A DNA stretch of 59,495 nucleotides, filler included. It is 5 parts of 5 records of this genome, joined end to end, with 100 filler letters (N's around TTAATTAATTAA, not from the genome) between each part and the next. Parts side by side here need not be neighbours in the genome. Positions count along the whole stretch, not along the records: positions 35,801 to 44,938 come from SRR20825006_941; 4 more parts are not named here. The stretch is one strand, 5' to 3'. Position 1 is the stretch's first letter. Each line of letters begins with the position of its first letter. The notes beneath the pieces were generated by a model. It searched no databases, was not told the origin of the DNA, and worked only from the letters and a program-made list of their open reading frames with translations. The translations under genes and the position numbers were made by a program. This document shows positions 19,207 to 54,108 of this stretch, piece after piece.

Positions 19207-19298
19207 GCAAGCCAACGCACGAGCAGAAAACACAAATTGGCCGAGCAGCCTTTTGATTCAGTCGTATACGAATGACAACAATTAGCCGATGGGCGTTA

Positions 19299-19398
19299 NN
19301 NNNNNNNNNNNNNNNNNNNNNNNNNNNNNNNNNNNNNNNNNNTTAATTAATTAANNNNNNNNNNNNNNNNNNNNNNNNNNNNNNNNNNNNNNNNNNNN
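19299..19398. other. Artificial contig linker
   Basis: 44 N + TTAATTAATTAA + 44 N, with an abrupt GC shift across it. Confidence 0.99.
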
Positions 19399-19567
19399 GA
19401 GGTATCTTCAGGATGACGGTGAGCGTTGATGGATTTATTAAAACTGTCAGCGAATTACCTAACATCTACAGGGATGACCGAGACTTTAAGAACTATCAAA
19501 TCTGTCAAGGAATTATCTACACCAACAATACCTGACGAAGCTAGGTGAGTGGAATAAACATCTATTT

Positions 19568-35459: not shown

Positions 35460-35700
35460 TTTTGGGAAATTAGGGGATAGTTATTAGTGGTGTACAAGCG
35501 AGGTGCTTGCACAAGGTTGGGTTAGATAATTCGGTGAGCATTTCGGTTTGCTTAAAACCTTCCGTCATCCAGAGGAGACTTCCGAAGGATCTTCGAATAT
35601 CTTAAGAAACCATTGCTTTTTTAGGTGGCTAATCTCAAAAAAAGCCACCACACCTGAGCAGTTAAGGACACGGGTCTAGAATCACAACACAGCCATCACT

Positions 35701-35800
35701 NNNNNNNNNNNNNNNNNNNNNNNNNNNNNNNNNNNNNNNNNNNNTTAATTAATTAANNNNNNNNNNNNNNNNNNNNNNNNNNNNNNNNNNNNNNNNNNNN
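35701..35800. other. Artificial contig linker
   Basis: 44 N + TTAATTAATTAA + 44 N. Confidence 0.99.
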
Positions 35801-35802
35801 GT

Positions 35803-36087
35803 GTTGAAGGAAAAGAAATTACTATTGTAGATGGTGGAAAAGAATTTCACTTTACAATGACTAAAGATTACGACAACATTCTCGATGCAGCACTTGGCGC
35901 AGGTGCAGATTTACCTTTCGCCTGTAAAGGTGGTGTTTGTAGCACGTGTAAATGTGAGGTAAAAGAAGGAAGTGTCGAGATGAAGATAAATTATGCATTA
36001 GATGATAAGGAAGTATCTCAAAATTTAGTGCTTAGCTGCCAAGCTGTTCCAACAAGTGATAAAGTAACTGTCGATTTCGACGTATAA
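35803..36087 (+). CDS. paaE: Phenylacetyl-CoA epoxidase reductase subunit, C-terminal 2Fe-2S domain (5'-partial)
   Basis: LPFACKGGVCSTC...LSCQA; directly precedes paaA. Confidence 0.9.
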   Translation, partial: VEGKEITIVDGGKEFHFTMTKDYDNILDAALGAGADLPFACKGGVCSTCKCEVKEGSVEMKINYALDDKEVSQNLVLSCQAVPTSDKVTVDFDV

Positions 36088-36097
36088 ATAAAATATT

Positions 36098-37054
36098 ATG
36101 AGCAACGCAGAAATAAAGAATTTAGAAGACATCTTTGAGCAACGCATTGCCAATGATGAAAAAATTGAACCAAAAGATTGGATGCCAGAAAAGTATCGAA
36201 AGACACACATTAGGCAAATGTCTCAGCACGCACATTCTGAAATCGTTGGAATGCTTCCTGAAGGTAATTGGATTTCACGTGCACCTTCATTAAGACGCAA
36301 AGTTGCGTTATTAGCAAAAGTGCAAGATGAAGCTGGTCACGGCTTATACTTATACAGCGCTTGTGAAACTTTAGGTGTGTCTAGAGAAGAATTATACCGT
36401 CAACTACATTCTGGTGAAGCAAAATATTCTTCAATCTTCAACTATCCAACATTAACTTGGGCAGATATGGGTGCGATTGGCTGGTTGGTTGATGGCGCAG
36501 CGATTATTAATCAAGTGCCATTGTGTAACACATCATATGGACCATATGCAAGAGCAATGGTGCGCGTGTGTAAAGAGGAAAGCTTTCACCAACGCCAAGG
36601 ATATGAAATCATGCTTTCACTTTGTAATGGAACTCCAGAACAAAAAGAAATGGCGCAAGATGCATTGAACAGATGGTGGTGGCCAAGCTTGATGATGTTA
36701 GGCCCAACAGATGATGCTTCAGTACATACAGAACAATCTATGAAATGGAAGCTGAAACGTAAAACCAACGATGAACTACGTCAGCAATTTATTGATCAAA
36801 CCGTTCCTCAAGCAGATATTTTAGGACTAACTATTCCAGACCCAGATTTAAAATTTAATGAAGAGACAGGAAGCTATGACTTTGGAGAGATAGATTGGGA
36901 TGAATTCTGGCAAGTTGTAAAAGGTCACGGTCCTTGTAATAAAGAACGCATGAACGCCAGAGTTAATGCTTGGAATGAAGGCGAATGGGTGCGCGATGCA
37001 GCTGTTGCCTATGCAGAAAAACAAGAAAATAAAAAAGTAGCGAAAGCAAGTTAA
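36098..37054 (+). CDS. paaA: Phenylacetyl-CoA epoxidase subunit A
   Basis: [33 protein letters not shown]. Confidence 0.98.
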
Positions 37055-37057
37055 GAT

Positions 37058-37348
37058 ATGAGCACTAAGAAAAATTGGCCCGTTTGGGAAATCTTCGTGA
37101 GAAGTAAAAATGGATTAGAACACCGTCACTTTGGAAGCCTTCACGCAGCAGATGCAGAAATGGCTTTAGCGAATGCGCGTGACGTTTACACAAGACGTAG
37201 CGAAGGCGTAAGCATTTGGGTTGTAAAGAGTCAACACATTACAGCGTCTAACCCAGACAATAATGGTGAGCTATTCGAGCCGGCACAAGACAAAGTGTAC
37301 CGTCATCCAACATTTTACGATTTACCAGACGACGTGAAGCATATGTAA
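37058..37348 (+). CDS. paaB: Phenylacetyl-CoA epoxidase subunit B
   Basis: GSLHAAD, NARDVYTRR, KVYRHPTFY. Confidence 0.98.
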   Translation: MSTKKNWPVWEIFVRSKNGLEHRHFGSLHAADAEMALANARDVYTRRSEGVSIWVVKSQHITASNPDNNGELFEPAQDKVYRHPTFYDLPDDVKHM

Positions 37349-37356
37349 CACTAGGT

Positions 37357-37418
37357 GTCACCCTGAATTTACTTCAGGGTCTTTTCCAATTTTGTCATTC
37401 CTGCGTAGGCAGGAATCC
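37357..37418. repeat. Two GTCA-footed REP hairpins
   Basis: GTCACCCTGAA-TTTAC-TTCAGGGTC and GTCATTCCTGC-GTAG-GCAGGAATCC. Confidence 0.85.
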
Positions 37419-37448
37419 ACTACTTACTAAATATTTGAACATTCTGAA

Positions 37449-38210
37449 ATGGCTATCAAAAACGACATTTTAATAAATTATATCCTCGGCATCGCCGATA
37501 ACTCACTCATCCTTGGGCAACGTCTAGGAACCTTAACTGGTCACGGACCAAGTTTAGAGACAGACATCGCTTGCACTAACATTTCATTAGACTTGTTCGG
37601 ACAGGTTCGTGGTTACTACCAATATGCTGCCGATTTATCTGAAGAGGACAAAACTGAAGATGATTTCGCGTTTCTCAGAAAAGAACGTGATTATAAAAAT
37701 GTGCTTTTGGTTGAGCAACCAAACCGAGATTTCGCTTACGTCATCGCAAGACAGTATTTGTTTGATGTTTTCCACATTTTACAAATGCAAGAACTTCAAA
37801 ATAGTAAAGATGAAAACTTAGCAGCAATTGCTAAGAAAGGCATTAAAGAAGTGAACTATCACGTGCGATTTTCTGGAGATTGGATGAAACGTCTAGGCGA
37901 TGGAACTGAAGAAAGCCATAATAAAATTCAGGAAGCCGTGAATAATCTTTGGGGTTATACCAATGAATTATTTATGATGACTGAAGCAGATAAAGAAGCT
38001 TCGGAAGCTGGTATCGGTGTAGATGTTTCAAAACTAAAAAACACCTATTACAATCGCGTTGAGAATCTTCTGAAAGAAGCAACTATCGAAACCCCTGAAA
38101 GTAAATACTGGCAAAAAGGTGGCAAAGAAGGTATTCATACAGAACATCTTGGTTATCTATTGAGCGATATGCAGTATATGCAACGCACCTATCCTAATAT
38201 GAAATGGTGA
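37449..38210 (+). CDS. paaC: Phenylacetyl-CoA epoxidase subunit C
   Basis: ADNSLILGQRL, KEVNYH, RLGDGTEES, YMQRTYP. Confidence 0.97.
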   Translation: MAIKNDILINYILGIADNSLILGQRLGTLTGHGPSLETDIACTNISLDLFGQVRGYYQYAADLSEEDKTEDDFAFLRKERDYKNVLLVEQPNRDFAYVIARQYLFDVFHILQMQELQNSKDENLAAIAKKGIKEVNYHVRFSGDWMKRLGDGTEESHNKIQEAVNNLWGYTNELFMMTEADKEASEAGIGVDVSKLKNTYYNRVENLLKEATIETPESKYWQKGGKEGIHTEHLGYLLSDMQYMQRTYPNMKW

Positions 38211-38213
38211 TAA

Positions 38214-38233
38214 ATTCCTGCGAAAGCAGGAAT
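38214..38233. repeat. REP hairpin
   Basis: ATTCCTGC-GAAA-GCAGGAAT. Confidence 0.85.
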
Positions 38234-38259
38234 CTCTAAAGATTCAGAAAATAAGGGCA

Positions 38260-38769
38260 ATGAAAACTCTCACTGAGGAACCTCACATAAACAAAAAACT
38301 TATAGACATTTTAGAGTCGGTTTCCGATCCTGAAGTGCCAGTACTTTCAATTTTAGATTTAGGTGTTGTTCGTTATGCAGATTTTGAAGACGACGGAAAA
38401 GTTTCAGTAAAAATCACACCAACATATAGCGGTTGTCCAGCAATGGATGTTATTGGTGACGACATTGAAAAAGCATTGACAGAAGCCGGTTACAAATCAA
38501 AAGTAAAATTGATTCTTTCACCAGCTTGGACCACAGATTGGATGAGCGAGAATGGCAAGAGAAAACTCGAAGAGTACGGCATCGCGCCACCAATGGACGC
38601 CACAGCAGACAAAGCTGCTTTACTAGGAAATGCCAAAATCGTAAAATGTACCAATTGTGGAAGTACGAACACACATTTGGTAAGTCAGTTTGGCTCAACG
38701 GCTTGCAAAGCAATGTTTAAATGTGACGATTGCCAAGAGCCGTTCGACTATTTTAAATGTTTAACCTAA
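38260..38769 (+). CDS. paaD: Phenylacetyl-CoA epoxidase subunit D
   Basis: DPEVP, TPTYSGCPAM, AWTTDW, FGSTACKA, CQEPFDYFKC. Confidence 0.97.
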   Translation: MKTLTEEPHINKKLIDILESVSDPEVPVLSILDLGVVRYADFEDDGKVSVKITPTYSGCPAMDVIGDDIEKALTEAGYKSKVKLILSPAWTTDWMSENGKRKLEEYGIAPPMDATADKAALLGNAKIVKCTNCGSTNTHLVSQFGSTACKAMFKCDDCQEPFDYFKCLT

Positions 38770-38910
38770 TTCCTGCGTAGGCAGGAATCTCTATGTTAGA
38801 AACGAGAACTTTAAAATATAAGCTCGCCGTCATTCTGAATTCGTTTCAGAATCACATTATACTATTCAAAATTTGAAAAATAAGAGAACCTGAATCAAGT
38901 TCAGGTTGAC
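38769..38910. repeat. REP hairpin plus inverted REP doublet (REPIN-like)
   Basis: ATTCCTGCGTAGGCAGGAAT (38769-38788); GTCATTCTGAA..TTCAGAATC (38829) paired with ACCTGAA..TTCAGGTTGAC (to 38910). Confidence 0.85.
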
Positions 38911-38924
38911 AAAAAAAAAGAAAT

Positions 38925-39710
38925 ATGACCGACCAACCCATAATAAAAACCATAAACGGAAACGTTGCTACACTAAAGCTAAACCGACCAAAAGGTTTTA
39001 ATAGTTTTAATCGTGAGATGGCGTTGCTGTTTCAAGATGAACTAAAAGCTTGTGATAAGGATGACAGCATTCGTGCGATTCTTATAACAGGTGAAGGCAA
39101 AGCATTTTGTGCTGGTCAAGACTTGAAGGAAGTTACAACTCCAGAATTAAATCCAGGCTTCAAAAAAATTCTTAAAGAACATTACAATCCAATTATTGAA
39201 TTGATTCGCAATATTGAAAAACCAATAGTTTGTGCCGTAAATGGCGTTGCAGCTGGCGCTGGTGCGAACATTGCTTTGGCTTGTGATATTGTTATTGCTT
39301 CAGAACACGCTAGTTTTATACAAGCGTTTAGTAAAATTGGCTTGGTGCCAGATAGCGCTGGAACCTTCTTTTTACCAAGGTTAATCGGCTTTCAAAAAGC
39401 TTCAGCATTAATGATGTTAGGTGATAAAGTTTCAGCTAAAGAAGCAGATGAACTGGGAATGATATACAAAGTTTTTTCTGCAGAAGACTATTTCTCTGAA
39501 GCTGAAAAAACTGCTCAGACATTATCTAAAATGCCTACCAAAGCATTGGGAATGACAAAGCGTTTGCTCAACCAATCAATGACCAATACACTTACTGAAC
39601 AACTAGAGTTAGAAGGCAAGCTACAAATTGAAGCTGCCCAAAGCGAAGATTACGCAGAAGGTGTGGATGCGTTTGTGAATAAGCGCAAACCAGAATTTAA
39701 AGGCAGATAA
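38925..39710 (+). CDS. paaG: Epoxyphenylacetyl-CoA isomerase (crotonase family)
   Basis: AFCAGQDL, VNGVAAGAGAN, FSKIGLVPD. Confidence 0.93.
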   Translation: MTDQPIIKTINGNVATLKLNRPKGFNSFNREMALLFQDELKACDKDDSIRAILITGEGKAFCAGQDLKEVTTPELNPGFKKILKEHYNPIIELIRNIEKPIVCAVNGVAAGAGANIALACDIVIASEHASFIQAFSKIGLVPDSAGTFFLPRLIGFQKASALMMLGDKVSAKEADELGMIYKVFSAEDYFSEAEKTAQTLSKMPTKALGMTKRLLNQSMTNTLTEQLELEGKLQIEAAQSEDYAEGVDAFVNKRKPEFKGR

Positions 39711-39715
39711 ATAAT

Positions 39716-39787
39716 AAACTCAAAATGATAAATGTAAAATTATAAAGGCATAGAACTTTGAAATTTTACATTTTAAATTTTACATTT
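39716..39787. repeat. Inverted heptamer-repeat hairpin
   Basis: AAACTCA AAATGAT AAATGTA AAATTAT, a short loop, then GAAATTT TACATTT TAAATTT TACATTT. Confidence 0.75.
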
Positions 39788-39792
39788 TTAAG

Positions 39793-40956
39793 ATGATAAA
39801 GAACGTAGGAATCATAGGAGCAGGAACAATGGGAAGTGGTATCGCGCAAGTTGCTGCTACAGCTGATTGTAAAGTCAAACTCTTCGATTTAAGTCAAGAA
39901 GCACTCGATAAGGCCAAAGCAGCTTTAGAGAAAATATTAAATCGGTTAATTGAAAAAGGCCGAATCGATGTTGAAGAAAAGAACCGTATTCAAGATAACA
40001 TCTCTTATATTTCAGATATGAAGAGCTTTTCTGATGCGGATATGACTATTGAAGCCATTGTTGAAAATATCGACATTAAAAAGAAAGTGTTTCAGGAGTT
40101 GGAAAGCATTGTTTCTGAAGATTGTATCATTGCTTCAAACACCTCAAGTTTGTCGATTGCTTCCATTGCGTCATCACTAGATAAACCTGAACGTTGTGTA
40201 GGGATTCACTTTTTTAATCCAGCACCGTTAATGAAATTGGTTGAGGTTATTCCAGCAATACAGACTTCAGAAGCAACGTTGAATACGTCAGTAGACACTA
40301 TTGAAAGTTGGAAGAAAGTTGTTGCAGTAGCTAAGGACACACCAGGATTTATTGTCAACCGTGTTGCACGACCATTTTATAGCGAGTCACTCAGACAATA
40401 TGAAGAAGGCATCGCCGACTTCGCCACGATTGATTGGGCGATGAAGGAATTTGGAGGCTTTAGAATGGGACCTTTTGAATTAATGGATTTTATAGGAAAC
40501 GATGTGAATTACACGGTTACTGAAACTGTTTTTGAAGCATTCTATTATGACCCACGTTACAAGCCAGCGTTCACTCAAAAACGCTTTTCTGAAGCAGGAT
40601 ATTTAGGCAGAAAATCAGGTAAAGGCTATTACAATTATTCTGAAGGCGCTACGAAACCAGAGCCTAACAAAGATGCAGCCTTAGGACAAAACATTTTCAA
40701 TAGAACATTAGTGATGCTTATCAATGAAGCTGCTGATGCCTTGTTTTGGAATGTCGCTTCAGCAAAAGATATTGATAATGCGATGACCAAAGGTGTCAAC
40801 TACCCAAAAGGTTTACTCGCTTGGGCAAATGAAAAGGGAATCGATTGGTGTGTTACGGAATTAGACAAATTGTACAATGAGTATCACGAAGACAGGTACC
40901 GTTGTTCACCGATGCTGCGTAGGATGAAGGATTCAGGAAGTAAGTTTGAGGTATAA
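39793..40956 (+). CDS. paaH: 3-hydroxyadipyl-CoA dehydrogenase
   Basis: GAGTMGSGIA, ASNTSS, GIHFFNPAP, PGFIVNR, MGPFEL. Confidence 0.93.
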   Translation: MIKNVGIIGAGTMGSGIAQVAATADCKVKLFDLSQEALDKAKAALEKILNRLIEKGRIDVEEKNRIQDNISYISDMKSFSDADMTIEAIVENIDIKKKVFQELESIVSEDCIIASNTSSLSIASIASSLDKPERCVGIHFFNPAPLMKLVEVIPAIQTSEATLNTSVDTIESWKKVVAVAKDTPGFIVNRVARPFYSESLRQYEEGIADFATIDWAMKEFGGFRMGPFELMDFIGNDVNYTVTETVFEAFYYDPRYKPAFTQKRFSEAGYLGRKSGKGYYNYSEGATKPEPNKDAALGQNIFNRTLVMLINEAADALFWNVASAKDIDNAMTKGVNYPKGLLAWANEKGIDWCVTELDKLYNEYHEDRYRCSPMLRRMKDSGSKFEV

Positions 40957-40995
40957 AAAGCCTGGAGCTGTGAGCCTTTAGCTATGAGATAAAAA

Positions 40996-41030
40996 AGGCA
41001 TTAGGTATTTGGAAATAGGCATTAGTAATG
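40996..41030 (+). repeat. Left heptamer array of the four-helix-bundle cassette
   Basis: AGGCATT AGGTATT TGGAAAT AGGCATT AGTAATG; the last unit supplies the ATG. Confidence 0.85.
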
Positions 41031-41408
41031 AATAGTGATTACAATTTTAAGTTTGAGGATTTACAAGTTTATCAAAAGGCGATGGACTTTGGAGAAGTCG
41101 TTGACAAAATTGTAAAGGATTTTCCTAAACACGAATTATATACTTTATCATCTCAATTTAGAAGAGCTGCAGATTCCATTGCTTTAAATCTTGCCGAAGG
41201 TTATCCAGGTTCAGATGCTCAATTTGTGAAACATATTAATCACGCAATTTATAGCGCTAATGAATGTGTGAGTTGTAGCATAAAAGCTATCAGAAGAAAT
41301 TATATCAGTCATCAACAAAATGAAGAAAACAGAAAGTTAATTTCAGAAATGACAAAAATGATGTCTTCGCTTAGAAACAAAATCTTAGAACGAAACAAAA
41401 AGTACTAA
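41028..41408 (+). CDS. Four-helix bundle protein (23S rRNA IVP / bAvd-like family)
   Basis: FEDLQVYQKA, FPKHELYTLSSQFRRAADSIALNLAEG signature. Confidence 0.93.
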   Translation: MNSDYNFKFEDLQVYQKAMDFGEVVDKIVKDFPKHELYTLSSQFRRAADSIALNLAEGYPGSDAQFVKHINHAIYSANECVSCSIKAIRRNYISHQQNEENRKLISEMTKMMSSLRNKILERNKKY

Positions 41409-41416
41409 TCCTTATC

Positions 41417-41472
41417 AATTACTAATACCAAATCCCTATTCCCTAATGCCTATTTCCAAAACCAAAATCCCA
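41417..41472 (-). repeat. Right (inverted) heptamer array of the cassette
   Basis: AATTACT AATACCA AATCCCT ATTCCCT AATGCCT ATTTCCA AAACCAA AATCCCA. Confidence 0.85.
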
Positions 41473-41856
41473 AATAAAATGCTAAGTCAAGACCACTTCT
41501 CAACCTGGCTCGGCATAGAAATTATAAGTGTCGAAATAGGTCGCGTTAAGGTTGGAATGACCATTCGCAAAGAAATGCTGAATAGTATGGGAAAAGCACA
41601 CGGCGGCATTTCATACAGTTTAGCCGATACTGCTTTTGGATTTTCAGCAAACACACACGGAAAATATGCAGTAAGTATTGAAACTTCGATTAATCATATC
41701 GAAGCACTTGAAGAAGGCGATTATATTACTGCTGAAGCGGTGACAGATGTTTCAAAGAAAAAAGTAGGGTTCAATATTGTCGAAGTTAAGCGAGGCGACC
41801 AACTTGTTGCGCTATTTAAAGGCGTTGTGTACAGAACGAGCAAAGATTGGGAATAA
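41446..41856 (+). CDS. paaI: Phenylacetyl-CoA thioesterase (hotdog fold)
   Basis: D.FS.WLGI, MLN...AHGGISYSLADTAF. Confidence 0.93.
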   Translation: MPISKTKIPNKMLSQDHFSTWLGIEIISVEIGRVKVGMTIRKEMLNSMGKAHGGISYSLADTAFGFSANTHGKYAVSIETSINHIEALEEGDYITAEAVTDVSKKKVGFNIVEVKRGDQLVALFKGVVYRTSKDWE

Positions 41857-41904
41857 GCATTTAGAAAATTGTATTTTTAAAGGACTAACCATAACCTATT
41901 AAAT

Positions 41905-42768
41905 ATGAAATGGAAAGGTAGAAGAAAAAGTGGCAATCTCGATGACCGTCGTGGTATGAGTACCAAAGGTAAAGTCGCCGCTGGTGGTGGCGTGATTGCT
42001 GTTATTGTCATTTTACTCCAACTTTTTGGAGGTGAAACAGGTCAGCAAATTGCACCAATTGTTGAGCAAATCAATAATTCCAGAACGACGACTCAGCAAA
42101 CCACTTCAAGAGAACTCACTTCAGCAGAACAAGAAATGGGCGATTTTATGGCGACTGTTTTAGCAGATACAGAAGATGTGTGGAATCAGCTATTTCGTCA
42201 AAATAATTTAGGCGATTATAAAGAACCACAAATGGTTTTGTTTACCGATGTTGTAAACACGCGTTGCGGAAAAGCAAGTTCAGCTTCTGGACCATTTTAT
42301 TGTCCTGGCGACCAAAAAGTCTATATGGATTTAGCGTTCTTCAAAGAACTACGAACACGTTTTGGTGCAAAAGGTGGCGATTTTGCTATTGCATATGTCA
42401 CGGCTCACGAGATTGGGCATCACGTTCAAACCTTATTAGGAACATCACGCCAAGTTCAACAAGCAAAACAAGGACGTTCTCAAGCAGATGCCAATAAGTT
42501 ATCTGTGGCTCAAGAACTCCAAGCTGATTTTTACGCAGGACTTTGGGCGCATTACAATAAAAAATATTTGGACGAAGGCGATATCGAAGAAGCATTAAGC
42601 GCGGCACAAGCCGTTGGTGATGATGCCATTCAAAAAAGAACCAGAGGTTATGTTCAGCCAGACAGTTTCACACACGGCACAAGCAGGCAACGTATGGAAT
42701 GGTTTATGAAAGGTTTTAGAAGTGGAGATATGAGCCAACACGATACGTTTAAAGCCATTTTAAATTAA
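41905..42768 (+). CDS. Neutral zinc metallopeptidase (YpfJ-like)
   Basis: GRRKSGNLDDRRG, GPFYCP, AHEIGHHVQ, ELQADF, FTHGTS. Confidence 0.93.
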   Translation: MKWKGRRKSGNLDDRRGMSTKGKVAAGGGVIAVIVILLQLFGGETGQQIAPIVEQINNSRTTTQQTTSRELTSAEQEMGDFMATVLADTEDVWNQLFRQNNLGDYKEPQMVLFTDVVNTRCGKASSASGPFYCPGDQKVYMDLAFFKELRTRFGAKGGDFAIAYVTAHEIGHHVQTLLGTSRQVQQAKQGRSQADANKLSVAQELQADFYAGLWAHYNKKYLDEGDIEEALSAAQAVGDDAIQKRTRGYVQPDSFTHGTSRQRMEWFMKGFRSGDMSQHDTFKAILN

Positions 42769-42778
42769 CATCAAAATT

Positions 42779-42848
42779 TCAGTTCGAGCGGAGTCGATAA
42801 CAATTAAAACTCCAAAAGTCAAAACATCTCGACTCCGCTCGATGTGAC
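42779..42848. repeat. Inverted REP doublet
   Basis: TCGAGCGGAGTCGA (42784-42797) and TCGACTCCGCTCGA (42829-42842), ending in GTGAC. Confidence 0.85.
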
Positions 42849-42911
42849 AAATTAAATTATAATTAATACTGTCTTCGATTTCAAATTCGATTTCAGTTTC
42901 AAATTCATAAA

Positions 42912-44126
42912 ATGAAAGAAGCATATATCATAGACGGAACACGCACACCAATCGGAAGTTACCACGGCACATTATCTGCTGTTAGGACAGACGATTTGGG
43001 AGCAATGGTCATCAAACACGTACTAGAAAAAAATCCAAACATCCCAAAAGACGCATTCGACGATGTTATAATGGGTTGTGCCAACCAAGCTGGTGAAGAC
43101 AACCGCAACGTCGCAAGAATGTGTTCACTACTTGCCGGAATGCCGTTTTCGGTTCCTGGCGAAACGGTGAACAGATTATGCAGTTCAGGTCTTTCGGCAA
43201 TCATCCACGCTAACCGAGCAATAAAAGCTGGTGACGGCGACTTATTCATTTCTGGAGGTGTCGAGAATATGACGCGCGGACCATACGTGATGAGCAAACC
43301 ATCTAAAGCATTTGGGAACGACAGTAAGATGTACGACTCTAGTTTTGGCTGGCGTTTTGTAAATACAAAAATGCACGAAATGTACGGCACAGATGGTATG
43401 GGAAACACTGCTGAGAATCTAGTCGAGAAATACAATATCAGTCGTGAAGACCAAGATGCTTTTGCTTACAATAGTCAGATGAAAGCAACTAAAGCTCAAG
43501 AAAATGGGCGTTTAGCAAAGGAAATAATGACTGTTGAAATTCCGCAACGCAAAAAAGACCCAATACAATTCAGTAAAGATGAATTTGTAAAACCAACAAC
43601 TACGAAGGAAATTCTTGGTAAGCTTAGACCTGCTTTCAAAAAAGAAAGTGGTAGTGTTACTGCAGGAAATTCTTCAGGATTAAATGATGGTGCGGCCGCT
43701 ACTATTGTCGCTTCAGAAGATGCTGTAAAGAAATACAATCTAAAGCCATTGGCACGAATCGTTTCTTCTGCCGTTGTGGGTGTCGAGCCAAGAATTATGG
43801 GAATCGGTCCAGTAAAGGCGAGTAATAAAGCCTTAGAAAAAGCCGGTTTAACTATGGAAGATATAGATGTCATCGAACTCAACGAAGCCTTTGCAGCACA
43901 AGCATTAGCCTGCATTCGCGAATGGGGGTTAAAGGACGACGACCCAAGAATTAACCCTAATGGCGGCTCAATTGCCATCGGTCATCCGCTTGGCGTAACA
44001 GGCGCGCGCATCGCCTATTCTGCGGCTTTAGAGTTGCAGGAAACTAACAAGCGTTACGCATTAGTTACGATGTGCGTCGGTGTTGGACAAGGCTATGCGG
44101 CGATTATCGAAAACGTGAATTTATAG
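42912..44126 (+). CDS. paaJ: 3-oxoadipyl-CoA thiolase (PaaJ/PcaF)
   Basis: CANQAGEDNRNVAR, NRLCSSG, NEAFA, GHPLG, MCVGVGQG. Confidence 0.95.
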   Translation: MKEAYIIDGTRTPIGSYHGTLSAVRTDDLGAMVIKHVLEKNPNIPKDAFDDVIMGCANQAGEDNRNVARMCSLLAGMPFSVPGETVNRLCSSGLSAIIHANRAIKAGDGDLFISGGVENMTRGPYVMSKPSKAFGNDSKMYDSSFGWRFVNTKMHEMYGTDGMGNTAENLVEKYNISREDQDAFAYNSQMKATKAQENGRLAKEIMTVEIPQRKKDPIQFSKDEFVKPTTTKEILGKLRPAFKKESGSVTAGNSSGLNDGAAATIVASEDAVKKYNLKPLARIVSSAVVGVEPRIMGIGPVKASNKALEKAGLTMEDIDVIELNEAFAAQALACIREWGLKDDDPRINPNGGSIAIGHPLGVTGARIAYSAALELQETNKRYALVTMCVGVGQGYAAIIENVNL

Positions 44127-44131
44127 AATTT

Positions 44132-44242
44132 GGGCGTTACCTAAAGGTCGGGCTTTCGCTACTCACTTTTTTAATGCCGCATTTCGACTGCGCTCAATGT
44201 GACATTAAAAAGAGTTCAAACAAACCGCTCAATCCCTAACGC
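44132..44242 (-). ncRNA. Flavo-1-like repeated structured RNA
   Basis: Minus strand GCGTTAGGGATTGAGCGG...GCGAAAGCCCGACC..GGTAACGCCC with paired ends; resembles the Flavo-1 motif as I recall it. Confidence 0.65.
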
Positions 44243-44257
44243 AAAAAACAACACAAA

Positions 44258-44860
44258 ATGAAAATCCTATTAGTTGGTGGCAACGGAACCATCGGAAGAT
44301 ATTTAAATACAACCTTATCAAAGGAACACGAAGTCATCGTCGCTGGTCGTTCAAAAGCTGATGTCATAGTCGATATTTCAGATTCTGAATCTATCAAGGC
44401 GATGTACGAGAAAGTCGATAACCTAGATGCCGTAATTTGTGTAGCTGGCGAAGCAAAATGGGAAGTATTCGAAAATCTTTCAGAAGAGGATTTCTATATC
44501 GGTATTAAGAGTAAGTTGATGGGTCAAGTTAATTTGGTTCGTATAGGTAAAGACTATTTAAATCATCGTGGCTCATTCACATTAACCACAGGAATTTTAG
44601 CAGATGAGCCAGTATATATGACAAGTTCTGCTGCAATGGTAAATGGCGGTATTCATAGTTTTGTAAAAGCTGTTGCTCTAGAATTAGGAAATGGCTTGCG
44701 TATAAATGCAGTGTCTTCAGATTTAGTAGAAGATGCCTACGAAAAATACCGAAGTTACTTTCCAGGAAATATTCCTGTTCCAATGAAAAAAGTAGCAATG
44801 GGCTATATTAAAGCCATTGAAAGTAGATTAAACGGACAAATCATAAGATTACAAGGTTAA
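44258..44860 (+). CDS. Short-chain dehydrogenase (atypical SDR)
   Basis: LVGGNGTIG, SKLMGQVNLV, GSFTLTTG, RINAVS. Confidence 0.9.
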   Translation: MKILLVGGNGTIGRYLNTTLSKEHEVIVAGRSKADVIVDISDSESIKAMYEKVDNLDAVICVAGEAKWEVFENLSEEDFYIGIKSKLMGQVNLVRIGKDYLNHRGSFTLTTGILADEPVYMTSSAAMVNGGIHSFVKAVALELGNGLRINAVSSDLVEDAYEKYRSYFPGNIPVPMKKVAMGYIKAIESRLNGQIIRLQG

Positions 44861-44872
44861 TTAAATTTCATT

Positions 44873-44898
44873 TGTCACATTGAGCGCAGTCGAAATGC
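44873..44898. repeat. REP element, exact inverse of 44179-44204
   Basis: TGTCACATTGAGCGCAGTCGAAATGC. Confidence 0.9.
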
Positions 44899-44938
44899 AA
44901 TCAATGACAAATTTTGAAACGATATAAAATGAACAAAA

Positions 44939-45038
44939 NNNNNNNNNNNNNNNNNNNNNNNNNNNNNNNNNNNNNNNNNNNNTTAATTAATTAANNNNNN
45001 NNNNNNNNNNNNNNNNNNNNNNNNNNNNNNNNNNNNNN
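44939..45038. other. Artificial contig linker
   Basis: 44 N + TTAATTAATTAA + 44 N. Confidence 0.99.
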
Positions 45039-45086
45039 AATTAACAACTTCAGCATTTAATAAGGCTAAATTTAAATAAGACAATA

Positions 45087-52900: not shown

Positions 52901-53903
52901 TAATTACGCTTACCAAACAGCAATTTAAATTTAATCAAGTAAAAATTGAAGATACTGAGTATAAAACTCAAGGACAATTAAATGGTATTATCTCTCATAA
53001 AAGTTTTAGTGACTGGTATTTAGACTTGGGTATACGAGGTAACCAATTGTTGGTCTTAAATACAGATTATCAGGAAGATGCATTATACTATGGTACAGCA
53101 TTTATAGATGGTGAAGCTACCATCGTAGGGCCAACAGATGAGTTGGTGATAGATGTTATTGCAGAAACAGAACCTGGTACAATATTTAAAATACCATTAA
53201 GTGATACAGAAAGTATAGGAGACAACTCATTTATTCACTTTTTAAGTCCAGAAGAAAAAGAAGCACGCTTAGCAGGAGAAGAAGTTATTTTTGAAGAGGT
53301 AAAAGGACTCTCTATAAACTTTGATTTAGATATAGATAAAGATGCTGAAGTTGAAATTGTTGTAGACCAAGTTAGTGGTAGCACATTAAAAGGAAAAGGT
53401 GCAGGAACACTACTCATTGAAATAGACACCAATGGTAAGTTTAATATGTGGGGAGATTTTGTTGCCTATGAAGGGGTTTATAATTTTAAATATGGCGGAT
53501 TAGTACAAAAGCAATTCGAGGTGGTTTCAGGAGGAAGTATAAACTGGGATGGTAGCCCTACTAGAGCTCAGTTAGATGTGCAAGCAGTGTATAAAGTACA
53601 GGCAAACCCTTCAATAATTCTCGAAAATCCTTCTATAAACAGAAAGATTCCGGTTGAGGTGGTTATTTCGCTTAATGGAGAAATTGTTCAACCAGACATT
53701 AGTTTTGATATTAATTATCCAAACGTTAGCTCAGTTGTAAGATCAGAGTTAGATTATTTAATAGATGATAGAGCAAGTAGAGAACTGCAAGCCTTGTCTC
53801 TAGTAACGCAAGGAACTTTTTATAGTGAATTTGCATTAGGTAATAATATTGTATCAGGAACACTGGCAGAGCGTGCTTCTAGTTTAGTGAATGATGCTTT
53901 TTC
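49918..53903 (+). CDS. tamB: Translocation and assembly module TamB (3'-partial; start uncertain)
   Basis: N-terminal TM anchor ending IPWVQT, long beta-rich body, C-terminal GSINWDGSP DUF490-like region; runs into the linker. Confidence 0.88.
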
Positions 53904-54003
53904 NNNNNNNNNNNNNNNNNNNNNNNNNNNNNNNNNNNNNNNNNNNNTTAATTAATTAANNNNNNNNNNNNNNNNNNNNNNNNNNNNNNNNNNNNNNNNN
54001 NNN
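53904..54003. other. Artificial contig linker
   Basis: 44 N + TTAATTAATTAA + 44 N. Confidence 0.99.
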
Positions 54004-54108
54004 CGACGGACAATGGAAGTACTCACATTTATACGCCAATGTTCGCATGTCTGAGGATCGCTATAAATAATTAATGAAATGGTTAGTTATATTAGAATAA
54101 ATTTAACC

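Follow-up and report, generated by a model that had tools for sequence, protein, structure and literature searches.

An intervening sequence (IVS)-type gene cassette is wedged into the stop/start junction between paaH and paaI, two co-directional genes of a paa operon. The cassette gene looks promoterless, encodes a four-helix bundle similar to that of the accessory protein Avd, and is bracketed by inverted arrays of degenerate heptamers, which we call the left and right arms. A preliminary description had recognized a discrete unit of gene and inverted heptamers comparable to the ORF-bearing intervening sequences of 23S rRNA, but located in an mRNA operon, and the analyses reported here bear this out. 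The whole stretch of DNA that was analysed (59,495 nucleotides, filler included) is referred to as the window, and the locus resides in the 9.1-kb contig piece that derives from SRR20825006_941. Comparisons were drawn from the nearest genomes, named genome records and metagenome contigs. The features of the locus and its surroundings are as follows.

39722-39792, + strand: gene-less heptamer hairpin (39722-39781, by RNA fold), with more units up to the paaH ATG
39793-40956, + strand: paaH-like 3-hydroxyacyl-CoA dehydrogenase gene, the upstream host gene
40957-40990, + strand: orphan left arm of another cassette lineage ('type X', AGCTNTG-like units), which aligns with the left arm of the relative L194
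40996-41030, + strand: left arm, five AGGNATT-type heptamers, G-rich and C-poor, the last ending in the ORF ATG
41008-41025, + strand: 5' half of an 18-bp inverted repeat, within repeat I4 and the MFE stem
41028-41408, + strand: four-helix-bundle gene, 126-aa product, PF05635 / TIGR02436
41409 to about 41476, + strand: right arm, about nine AATNCCW-type heptamers, C-rich and G-poor, overlapping the first paaI codons
41443-41460, + strand: 3' half of the 18-bp inverted repeat, including the predicted paaI ATG (41446-41448)
41446-41856, + strand: paaI-like hotdog thioesterase gene, the downstream host gene, with an alternative start (Met12) at 41479
42875-42909, + strand: weaker heptamer-like G-poor array directly before the paaJ ATG (42912), from reading of the sequence

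The left-arm heptamers at 40996-41030 read AGGCATT, AGGTATT, TGGAAAT, AGGCATT and AGTAATG. By direct reading, positions 41008-41025 are the exact reverse complement of 41443-41460 over 18 bp, and this perfect repeat is enclosed by the longer inverted repeat I4 (29 nt, 83% complementary). Four further long pairings connect the two flanks (I1, 63 nt, 73%; I2, 41 nt, 73%; I3, 38 nt, 71%; I5, 22 nt, 77%). Arithmetic on the repeat coordinates places the other pairings -14, -7, +7 and +21 nt off I1, and the second pairing register is therefore real. Each of these elements had been claimed in the preliminary description, namely five heptamers running into the gene's own ATG, a complementary heptamer array after the gene, a perfect 18-bp inverted repeat and a second pairing register, and all four can be recognized at the locus, with the registers of I1-I5 differing by multiples of 7. 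Tandem Repeats Finder reports only the cleanest portion (41433-41454, period 7, 3.1 copies, score 30), and a repeat search of 40900-41560 returned the arms only. Units of the AGGNATT type also precede the ATG in same-site orthologues, and the cassette arm is longer by two heptamers in environmental contigs.

When the region 40960-41500 is folded as RNA, the ORF is enclosed by a predicted helix in which 41004-41025 pairs with 41443-41463 and 41030-41040 pairs with 41431-41441. The z-score of this fold is -3.2, and none of 100 shuffled sequences folds as well; for the same stem folded as DNA the z-score is -1.9, and three of 100 shuffles fold as well. The flank-complementarity score of the locus is 39, compared with a 95th percentile of 22.4 and a maximum of 28 for 38 control genes of the window. 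A chance arrangement or an ordinary terminator hairpin was also considered, and is ruled out by the fold shuffles together with the flank-complementarity controls.

The product of the ORF at 41028-41408 scores 97 bits against PF05635 (cut-off 33.8) and 92.6 bits against TIGR02436 (cut-off 24). Its structure model (pLDDT 93) consists of four helices, for which the best fold match is 2gsc (TM 0.85/0.91, rmsd 1.1). The entry 2rld (TM 0.76/0.85) and then phage Avd (4dwl; TM 0.77/0.90, rmsd 1.6 A) rank behind it, the latter with 11% sequence identity and a Foldseek E-value of 0.064. The protein had previously been called an IVP/bAvd-like four-helix bundle, a designation with which both the family scores and the order of fold matches agree. 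PDB entries 2gsc and 2rld contain five chains each, and a Xanthomonas relative is described as a homopentameric toroid (PMC4990558). The window's protein may likewise form a pentameric ring, which is known only by analogy with these five-chain relatives.

The contig piece carries paaA-D, paaG-, paaH-, paaI- and paaJ-like genes together with genes for a YpfJ-type Zn peptidase and an SDR, and its 11 ORFs other than the cassette gene all match paa, peptidase or SDR families. The upstream host gene matches NF006124 (511.9 bits, cut-off 508) and the Pfam families 3HCDH_N and 3HCDH. The downstream host gene scores 98.3 bits against TIGR02286, which is below the cut-off of 118.9, and 73 bits against TIGR00369 (cut-off 36.6). 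No rRNA or other Rfam family was found above threshold on the contig piece (35814-44924), and no reverse transcriptase or transposase is present among its ORFs, as the preliminary description had stated for the vicinity of the gene.

In relatives whose junction lacks a cassette, the stop codon of paaH overlaps the start codon of paaI in the sequence TAATG. Where a cassette is present, the final right-arm heptamer CTAATG, as read from the sequence, re-supplies the predicted paaI start. The ATG at 41446, within the 18-bp repeat, is probably the true start of paaI, because in cassette-free relatives, too, the conserved Met is preceded by approximately 11 residues, which close with the same motif, I-P-x-K-M-L. 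The paaI ATG lies within the heptamer CTAATG in 14 of the 18 same-site orthologues; as a counterpoint, three of the 18 are without that ATG. Comparison of occupied and empty sites reveals a TAAT(G) motif at both cassette edges, which are too diverged for a duplication to be called.

Of 29 close relatives (62-89% aa identity), 20 share the gene order paaH-IVP-paaI, where IVP denotes the cassette gene, and these belong to at least nine named genera. Among 18 same-site orthologues, the dN/dS of the IVP gene is 0.08 and that of paaI is 0.055. The left arms of orthologues have diverged less (0.45) than four-fold degenerate sites (0.59), a relation that holds in 41 of 59 pairs. Because it occupies the same site in 20 of 29 relatives and is under purifying selection, the cassette is an old resident of the paaH-paaI junction and not a fresh insertion.

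Environmental relatives, of which 75 were compared at this junction, carry a cassette in 15 cases and none in 60, and 45 of the 60 are also without any array. Mapping of these states onto the host-gene tree requires 15 presence/absence changes, at least seven of which are forced by well-supported branches, and none of 500 label shuffles needs as few as 15. Four states occur in the window's own clade, among them a different cassette, gene-less sites at which the right arm alone is present, and a variant with an additional ORF. The right arm is retained in the gene-less close relatives L193, L195 and L196 and in contigs from RNA libraries. The different cassette is that of L194, whose left arm directly precedes its IVP ATG and aligns with the orphan array at 40957-40990 of the window; the IVPs of L194 and the window are 52% identical, whereas their host genes are 95-96% identical. 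The window's cassette lineage, with arms of the AGGNATT type, is found at other junctions in L156 and L161, which indicates that the arms move with the gene. In the Nonlabens clade, both arms have switched to a unit of the ACCACAT type.

Gene and arms thus behave as one unit that is co-inherited, moved, replaced in place, and deleted leaving orphan arms. The preliminary description had called for a search for empty sites and for variation of the repeat unit with the protein clade; the former are represented by the 60 cassette-free relatives, and the latter is seen in one clade, Nonlabens, where both arms switch together. The simple alternative that the gene is vertically conserved at this site holds by half. 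Its presence at the same site in 20 of 29 relatives and the purifying selection agree with vertical conservation, but the seven or more forced changes and the polymorphism of the window's own clade do not.

Other junctions of the operon show comparable traces. The gene-less hairpin at the paaG-paaH junction of the window folds as RNA with a z-score of -4.3, and none of 200 shuffles folds as well. At the same junction, L146, L153 and L165 have a third TIGR02436 gene with heptamer arms, L145 has the tail of a TIGR02436-type ORF, and L160 and L169 have arrays or a hairpin only. The sequence at 39722-39792 is probably the remnant of another cassette. Furthermore, IVP cassettes reside directly before paaJ in genus g1, L156 and L161. 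No sequence similarity was seen between the arms of these cassettes and the array at 42875-42909 of the window.

The protein family is very common in the phylum, with PF05635 present in 96 of 121 sampled genomes (approximately 657 matches, up to 19 copies per genome). We surveyed the flanks of 127 unique cassettes, taken from the best 150 of these matches within this single phylum, and used 38 genes of the window as the control set. Period 7 is the strongest in 81 of the 127 upstream flanks and 74 of the 127 downstream flanks; among the control genes the count is 4 of 38 for each flank. With regard to flank complementarity, 93 of the 127 cassettes score above the 95th percentile of the controls and 65 above the control maximum. 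When the cassettes are grouped at 65% identity, 46 of the resulting 70 clusters still pass for complementarity, and period 7 persists upstream in 44 and downstream in 42. Periodic inverted flanks are a family-wide property beyond chance, an enrichment that the preliminary description had foreseen for homologous genes.

The polarity of the arms is fixed relative to the gene, in that G-rich and stop-rich sequence lies before it and C-rich, G-poor sequence after it. Upstream, G exceeds C in 101 cassettes and the reverse is true in 19; downstream, C exceeds G in 103 and falls below it in 21, compared with 21 versus 16 and 19 versus 19 in control flanks. Left arms contain 3.0 stop triplets on the sense strand and 1.8 on the antisense strand, and right arms mirror this distribution. 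In the 15 cassettes that are antisense to both neighbours the polarity is weak (6 versus 5 upstream), and therefore it may reflect host context and not the cassette. Cassettes share the orientation of their neighbours in 95 of 121 and 100 of 123 instances. Neighbouring bacterial genes are usually co-oriented in roughly 70% of cases, and co-orientation was dropped as evidence since it is not clearly above this baseline. None of the nine cassettes that have no clear neighbouring ORF lies in rRNA. As to a promoter of their own, the eight-base consensus of the Bacteroidetes -7 promoter motif was found upstream of only 5 of the 127 cassettes. A sigma-70-type scan gave 14 sites against 10.1 +/- 3.6 expected, and terminator-like sites numbered 1 against 2.5 expected.

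We propose that the cassette is transcribed within the paa operon, and that its arms would pair in the transcript to form a helix (21 bp + 10 bp) with the ORF in its loop. The predicted helix would bury the AUG of paaI and flank the AUG of the cassette gene, and by analogy with rRNA intervening sequences, where this has been shown, it could be a substrate for RNase III. The insert would be tolerable to the operon because the stop-rich left arm would terminate translation arriving from paaH, and the G-poor right arm, when unpaired, would provide paaI with an open leader and a start codon. The ring-forming protein might in turn act on the hairpin or the arrays, which would result in self-regulation or cassette turnover. 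As a whole, the explanation that joins an IVS-type cassette to a transcript helix has, in our judgement, slightly better than an even chance of being correct. The RNA-level component of it (co-transcription, looping-out helix, RNase III substrate, tolerated insert) is more tentative and falls somewhat short of an even chance, and action of the protein on the hairpin or arrays, the least supported step, is doubtful.

Several comparisons bear directly on the predicted RNA helix. Mismatches compatible with G.U pairing are not in excess on the coding strand (56 G.T versus 52 A.C in 80 cassettes, p 0.77), and sequence evolution therefore does not point to selection on an RNA helix. In many same-site orthologues the stems are only short (scores 20-26), and the right arm of a cassette pairs with its own left arm no better than with the arms of other orthologues. 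Among predicted pairs in orthologue groups, 8 of 72 and 7 of 98 have changed on both sides, mostly inside the ORF, and for the outer pairs the count is 1 of 26. Co-variation of the arms is found at the level of unit type and not position by position. Separately, contigs from the RNA libraries of three marine studies cover paaH and paaI, and 41012-41415 is absent from them. Their source is a gene-less relative, and DNA is possible in such libraries, which makes these contigs uninformative on cassette transcription.

The same strand-symmetric mismatch spectrum (56 versus 52) also fits a reading in which the arms would be terminal inverted repeats or hairpins read in DNA when cassettes insert, replace one another or are deleted, with RNA structure incidental and the protein serving as a DNA-binding factor, or with host recombination or replication slippage acting on the hairpin. 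Much of the observed turnover fits such a mobile element: replacement in place leaves the orphan arm of the previous lineage, deletions leave one arm, gene-less hairpins occur, one lineage is found with its arms at three junctions, at least six arm-unit types have occupied the paaH-paaI junction, and active slippage is evident from perfect tandem arrays of up to 13 units. However, no catalytic domain, transposase or integrase occurs in or beside the cassette, and the arms differ between cassettes of one genome, which makes a single sequence-specific trans-acting enzyme unlikely. The strong strand polarity of the arms is unexpected for symmetric DNA ends, one site has been kept over at least nine named genera with a dN/dS of 0.08, and no clear target-site duplication can be defined. 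We consider a purely DNA-level element unlikely. The same estimate applies to a TRAP-like ring, in which each subunit of a pentamer would read one heptamer and the protein, bound to its own arms, would regulate itself and control translation or processing of the operon. In favour of such a ring, the crystals of 2gsc and 2rld hold five chains, the Xanthomonas protein is described as a homopentameric toroid (PMC4990558), and the window's left arm has five heptamers. Moreover, Avd, with the same fold, is found in complexes of RNA and protein (8ube and related entries), purifying selection acts on the protein, and unit type switches together with protein clade in Nonlabens. This switch is nevertheless a single event confounded with phylogeny, and unit counts vary between 2 and 13 instead of being constant at five. 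In five Nonlabens genomes, arrays of one unit are limited to one to three sites per genome, which leaves no large regulon for such a protein.

The arrays could also be ordinary host leader elements before start codons, like TAACTGA repeats, among which the four-helix-bundle gene merely happens to reside. Solo arrays do lie ahead of the paaH and paaJ starts in the window, the right arm persists before paaI in gene-less relatives, and the intergenic heptamer repeats of PMC4679880 are described as ending near start codons with stops in three frames. In opposition to this, 7-nt periodicity on either side is limited to 4 of 38 control genes, an inverted left copy is confined to the four-helix-bundle genes, and cassettes at new junctions have brought their arms along. 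In the window, solo arrays sit where relatives hold cassettes, and most cassette-free relatives (45 of 60) have no array at the paaH-paaI junction. We therefore regard host leader elements as a highly improbable explanation and retain the IVS-type cassette with a transcript helix as the preferred one.

The closest parallel among known systems is the IVS in helix 45 of Coxiella burnetii 23S rRNA (S23p), in which a PF05635 ORF occupies the loop of a terminal-inverted-repeat stem (PMC4990558). As in the window, tandem heptamers run up to the ORF ATG, and the sizes are similar at approximately 430-490 nt (PMC4990558). The Coxiella IVS is reported to have three tandem heptamers plus one degenerate copy before the S23p ATG, with strain-variable copy number, and its terminal stem of 28 bp is cleaved by RNase III in vitro (PMC4990558). 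Its authors argue that their S23p ORF is decaying and untranslated (PMC4990558), whereas the ORF of the window is under purifying selection. Unlike an rRNA IVS, the paa cassette has a protein-coding operon as its host, is flanked by paaH and paaI, and is inserted at a stop/start junction where it supplies the start codon of the next gene. Excision by RNase III is established for rRNA IVSs, but for the paa cassette the stem is a prediction.

The fold is shared with the DGR accessory protein Avd (4dwl; 8ube and other RNP structures), and PF05635 is described as the Pfam family most often found beside DGR reverse transcriptases (PMC10053308). The cassette differs from DGR Avd loci in having no reverse transcriptase among the ORFs of its contig piece. 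To our knowledge, inverted heptamer arms are not a DGR feature. MITEs and REP-type palindromes resemble the cassette in being short intergenic inverted repeats whose presence varies by strain, and the cassettes, too, have gene-less hairpin derivatives. Unlike them, the arms described here are internally periodic, differ among copies in one genome and hold a conserved ORF in the loop, and we know of no partner transposase for the cassette. TAACTGA repeats of Beggiatoaceae, cyanobacteria and some Bacteroidetes are similar in having a 7-nt period, a location just before starts, stops in all three frames of one orientation and variable copy number (PMC4679880). Those repeats are described as direct, with one inverted case, whereas the paa arrays are inverted pairs around one protein family. 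A word search of the same source returned no 'helix bundle', 'intervening' or 'S23', and our literature search did not find this architecture of gene plus inverted heptamers described outside rRNA.

The arms represent a candidate nucleic-acid partner for a very common protein family that was found in rRNA intervening sequences and has been without an assigned function ever since, and a marine flavobacterium growing on phenylacetate would offer a simple experimental system. The locus adds that a cassette can persist over the long term in a metabolic operon under selection, that cassettes of different lineages succeed one another at one stop/start junction inside a single species-level clade, and that a host gene takes its start codon from the arm of a cassette. 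Arms acting in RNA would amount to a new level of operon control, and arms acting in DNA would define a new type of gene cassette for which no recombinase is known. More broadly, PF05635/TIGR02436 proteins outside DGRs and rRNA could be the protein half of a very widespread, self-contained 'operon intervening element'. As a pentameric Avd-like ring, the protein would read the heptamer hairpin around its own gene (as RNA or ssDNA), control both processing and translation of the host operon, and drive cassette insertion at stop/start junctions, exchange and loss. The intergenic heptamer arrays of many bacteria, including orphan arms, gene-less hairpins and those of the TAACTGA and STRR types, would then be its footprints. 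This generalization is a long shot.

With regard to solo arrays, a regulon of many such sites was considered and is ruled out by the one to three sites per genome at which the cassette's unit was found in the five Nonlabens genomes. Five Nonlabens array sites were examined, and they proved to be three cassette arms, one of which belongs to a second cassette, and two solo arrays.

The cassette, a gene of the PF05635 four-helix-bundle family (the IVP gene) with a heptamer array on each side, lies in a phenylacetate-degradation (paa) operon, on a 9.1-kb contig piece. The window consists of separate contigs joined at 19283-19410, 35688-35813, 44925-45053 and 53891-54020 by N runs carrying a six-frame-stop linker. 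Its pieces may differ in their closeness to genome G001, because word sharing with this genome is 31% whereas PaaH identity is only about 60%. Features of the cassette-bearing piece are as follows.

35814-44924: the contig piece, carrying paaA, paaB, paaC, paaD, a paaG-like isomerase, a paaH-like dehydrogenase, ORF 41028-41408, a paaI-like thioesterase, a YpfJ-type Zn peptidase, a 3-oxoadipyl-CoA thiolase (paaJ-like) and an SDR
37397-37416, 38214-38233 and 38769-38788: REP-like palindrome (ATTCCTGC, 4 nt, GCAGGAAT) at the paaB-paaC, paaC-paaD and paaD-paaG junctions; the motif also lies 5ʹ of paaH in relative loci L150 and L155
40957-40990: orphan copy of the left arm of a different cassette lineage, that of locus L194
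41028-41408: the IVP gene, encoding 126 amino acids
41905-42768: the YpfJ-type Zn metallopeptidase gene, inside the operon between paaI and paaJ; some relatives have it and some do not (e.g. absent from L147, L149 and L157)
42784-42797 and 42829-42842: GC-rich hairpin (14-bp stem, 31-nt loop) 3ʹ of the Zn-peptidase gene (z -6.3)

The arms proposed in the preliminary description can be read directly in the sequence. The ATG of the IVP gene closes a run of five AGGNATT-type heptamers, and a complementary array follows its stop codon. Nucleotides 41008-41025 are the exact reverse complement of 41443-41460, and a repeat search recovered five long flank-flank pairings whose registers are offset by multiples of 7. 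The ATG at 41446 falls within the perfect inverted repeat. It is probably the real paaI start. In relatives without a cassette, too, the conserved Met is preceded by about 11 residues, which end in I-P-x-K-M-L; the equivalent ATG is, however, missing in 3 of 18 same-site orthologues.

The encoded protein matches PF05635 (97 bits) and TIGR02436 (92.6 bits). Its predicted structure has four helices (pLDDT 93) and superposes on 2gsc (TM 0.85/0.91) and on 2rld. Superposition with the phage DGR protein Avd (4dwl) is more distant (TM 0.77/0.90, 11% identity); a link between PF05635 and Avd is drawn in PMC10053308.

Inverted flanks with a 7-nt period are a trait of the PF05635 family and not a product of chance. 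Of the 121 genomes of the phylum that were sampled, 96 contain the family; matches total about 657 and reach 19 in a single genome. We surveyed 143 loci, which are the best-scoring of these matches and thus biased toward canonical members; 127 unique genes among them have full 90-nt flanks, and 38 other genes of the window served as controls. The enrichment foreseen in the preliminary description is evident among these best-scoring matches: 7 is the strongest autocorrelation lag in 81/127 upstream and 74/127 downstream flanks versus only 4/38 control genes per side, and complementarity between the two flanks exceeds the controls' 95th percentile in 93/127, their maximum in 65/127 and the maximum of 60 shuffles in 80/127. 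Majorities survive clustering at 65% identity: among the 70 clusters, complementarity passes the threshold in 46, and the lag is 7 upstream in 44 and downstream in 42. The heptamer varies among cassettes within one genome, and the left and right arms of each cassette match.

The arms are also polar relative to the gene, which is a new point. On the coding strand of the 127 best-scoring cassettes, G exceeds C upstream in 101 and falls below it in 19, and C exceeds G downstream in 103 versus 21 with the opposite skew; the corresponding counts for control genes are 21 versus 16 and 19 versus 19. Strands that read into the cassette are richer in stop triplets (per arm, 3.0 versus 1.8 on the left and 2.95 versus 1.95 on the right), and all three frames are closed in 35/80 left arms on the sense strand versus 12/80 on the antisense strand. 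The 85 cassettes that run in the same direction as both neighbours show the strongest polarity (73 versus 11, 74 versus 8), and it is weak in the 15 that are antisense to both.

The paaH-paaI junction is a site of cassette turnover. Of 80 metagenome loci whose PaaI is 79-100% identical, 75 include the end of paaH; a family member directly precedes paaI in 15 of these and is absent from 60, which establishes the existence of the empty sites sought among relatives. In 45 of the 60 cassette-free loci at most 20 nt separate the paaH stop from the PaaI alignment start, and in 4 of 12 junctions inspected (L203, L206, L225 and L244, for example) the genes overlap as TAATG. On a tree of PaaI and the C-terminal part of PaaH (79 rows, 32 with and 47 without a cassette), presence requires 15 changes, at least 7 of them being forced by well-supported branches, whereas label shuffles average 25 changes and none of 500 gave as few as 15. 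The trait is therefore inherited within clades yet repeatedly gained or lost. At least six arm-unit types occur at this junction.

The window's own clade, which is well supported and has five rows, is polymorphic at paaH-paaI, with the following states.

L195 (98% identical to the window over 372 amino acids), L193 and L196: gene and left arm absent, right arm kept
L194: AGCTNTG-type arms around a different family member (52% identical)
L197 and L198: the window's cassette, 720 nt being inserted between left arm and ATG

RNA-library contigs from two studies agree with the gene-less, right-arm-only state, and contigs of two of three RNA runs carry two extra heptamers. One half of the 42784-42842 hairpin recurs at this junction in L193, L195 and L196, in the expected place of the left arm. 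The insert carries a 185-amino-acid ORF whose product is hydrophobic at the N-terminus and belongs to no Pfam family (L198:372-926; also in L197 and RNA-library run X22), such that the hairpin loop of these cassettes holds two genes; its position explains the break of the X22 contig at 41025/41026. The window itself retains the orphan L194-type arm at 40957-40990, so one cassette took the place of another at this site.

Proteins closely related to that of the window (62-89% identity) occur in 29 genome records, 20 of which have the order paaH-IVP-paaI; this order is seen in Bizionia, Winogradskyella, Lacinutrix, Oceanihabitans, Gelidibacter, Dokdonia, Psychroserpens, Ulvibacter and Patiriisocius, among others. 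Across 18 intact orthologues, the IVP gene has a dN/dS of 0.08, compared with 0.055 for paaI, and therefore the protein is kept by selection. Of the 18 same-site orthologues, 13 have a spacer of 13 or 20 nt from stop codon to paaI ATG, and 14 have this ATG within the heptamer CTAATG.

Established for the cassette are its character as a unit, its type of site, the polarity of its arms, selection on its protein and its turnover. On the model of rRNA intervening sequences, it would be co-transcribed with the paa operon, its arms would pair in the RNA and bury the paaI AUG, and RNase III would cut the paired arms. PMC4990558 describes a Coxiella intervening sequence in which tandem heptamers precede the S23p ATG and a 28-bp stem is cut by RNase III in vitro. 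The predicted RNA fold at the window's site loops out the ORF (z -3.2), and the DNA fold has the same stem (z -1.9). The main rival explanation is that the protein acts at the DNA level, in cassette exchange. Arm mismatches show no bias toward G.U-compatible pairs (56 versus 52), and position-by-position compensatory change is rare within orthologue groups; both results count against a simple RNA reading. The TRAP-like reading of the heptamers by a ring-shaped protein, suggested in the preliminary description, is possible but unsupported. We found no description of inverted heptamer arrays around this family outside rRNA in full-text searches that covered few subscription journals; a word search of PMC4679880, on TAACTGA heptamer repeats, found no mention of helix bundle, intervening or S23.

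Cassettes also occupy other junctions. The window's lineage, its AGGNATT-type arms retained, directly precedes paaJ in L156 and L161. At paaH-paaI, L161 also holds a decayed family member (1555-2022) with two in-frame stops and GAGTCAT-type arms, the intact relative of the window's gene being at paaI-paaJ of the same locus. A third lineage resides at paaG-paaH in L146, L153 and L165, where a heptamer hairpin without a gene is all that the window has (z -4.3). Two other lineages occupy paaI-paaJ in another genus, g1 (19 of 23 informative loci); on the PaaH tree these two types are intermingled, one sister pair having 100/100 support, and the copies include three pseudogenes and one with a composite arm. 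In this last copy (L012), type-A units followed by type-B units precede a truncated type-B gene, a second instance of in-place replacement.

A Nonlabens clade has its cassette elsewhere than among the paa genes, and there an ACCACAT-type unit, in as many as 13 perfect copies, has taken over in both arms. Solo ACCACAT arrays, with no family gene within 1.5 kb, precede start codons in L173 (G152:C129:8733-8823, 13 perfect units) and L177 (G155:C11:25009-25057, 6 perfect units); upstream of the latter lie one inverted unit and a hairpin resembling a terminator. Finally, two family members are directly 3ʹ of matches to the SAM_alpha riboswitch model (L082:275-350 and L066:863-937; 40.3 and 37 bits, gathering score 36), these cassettes being placed between the riboswitch and its regulated gene.
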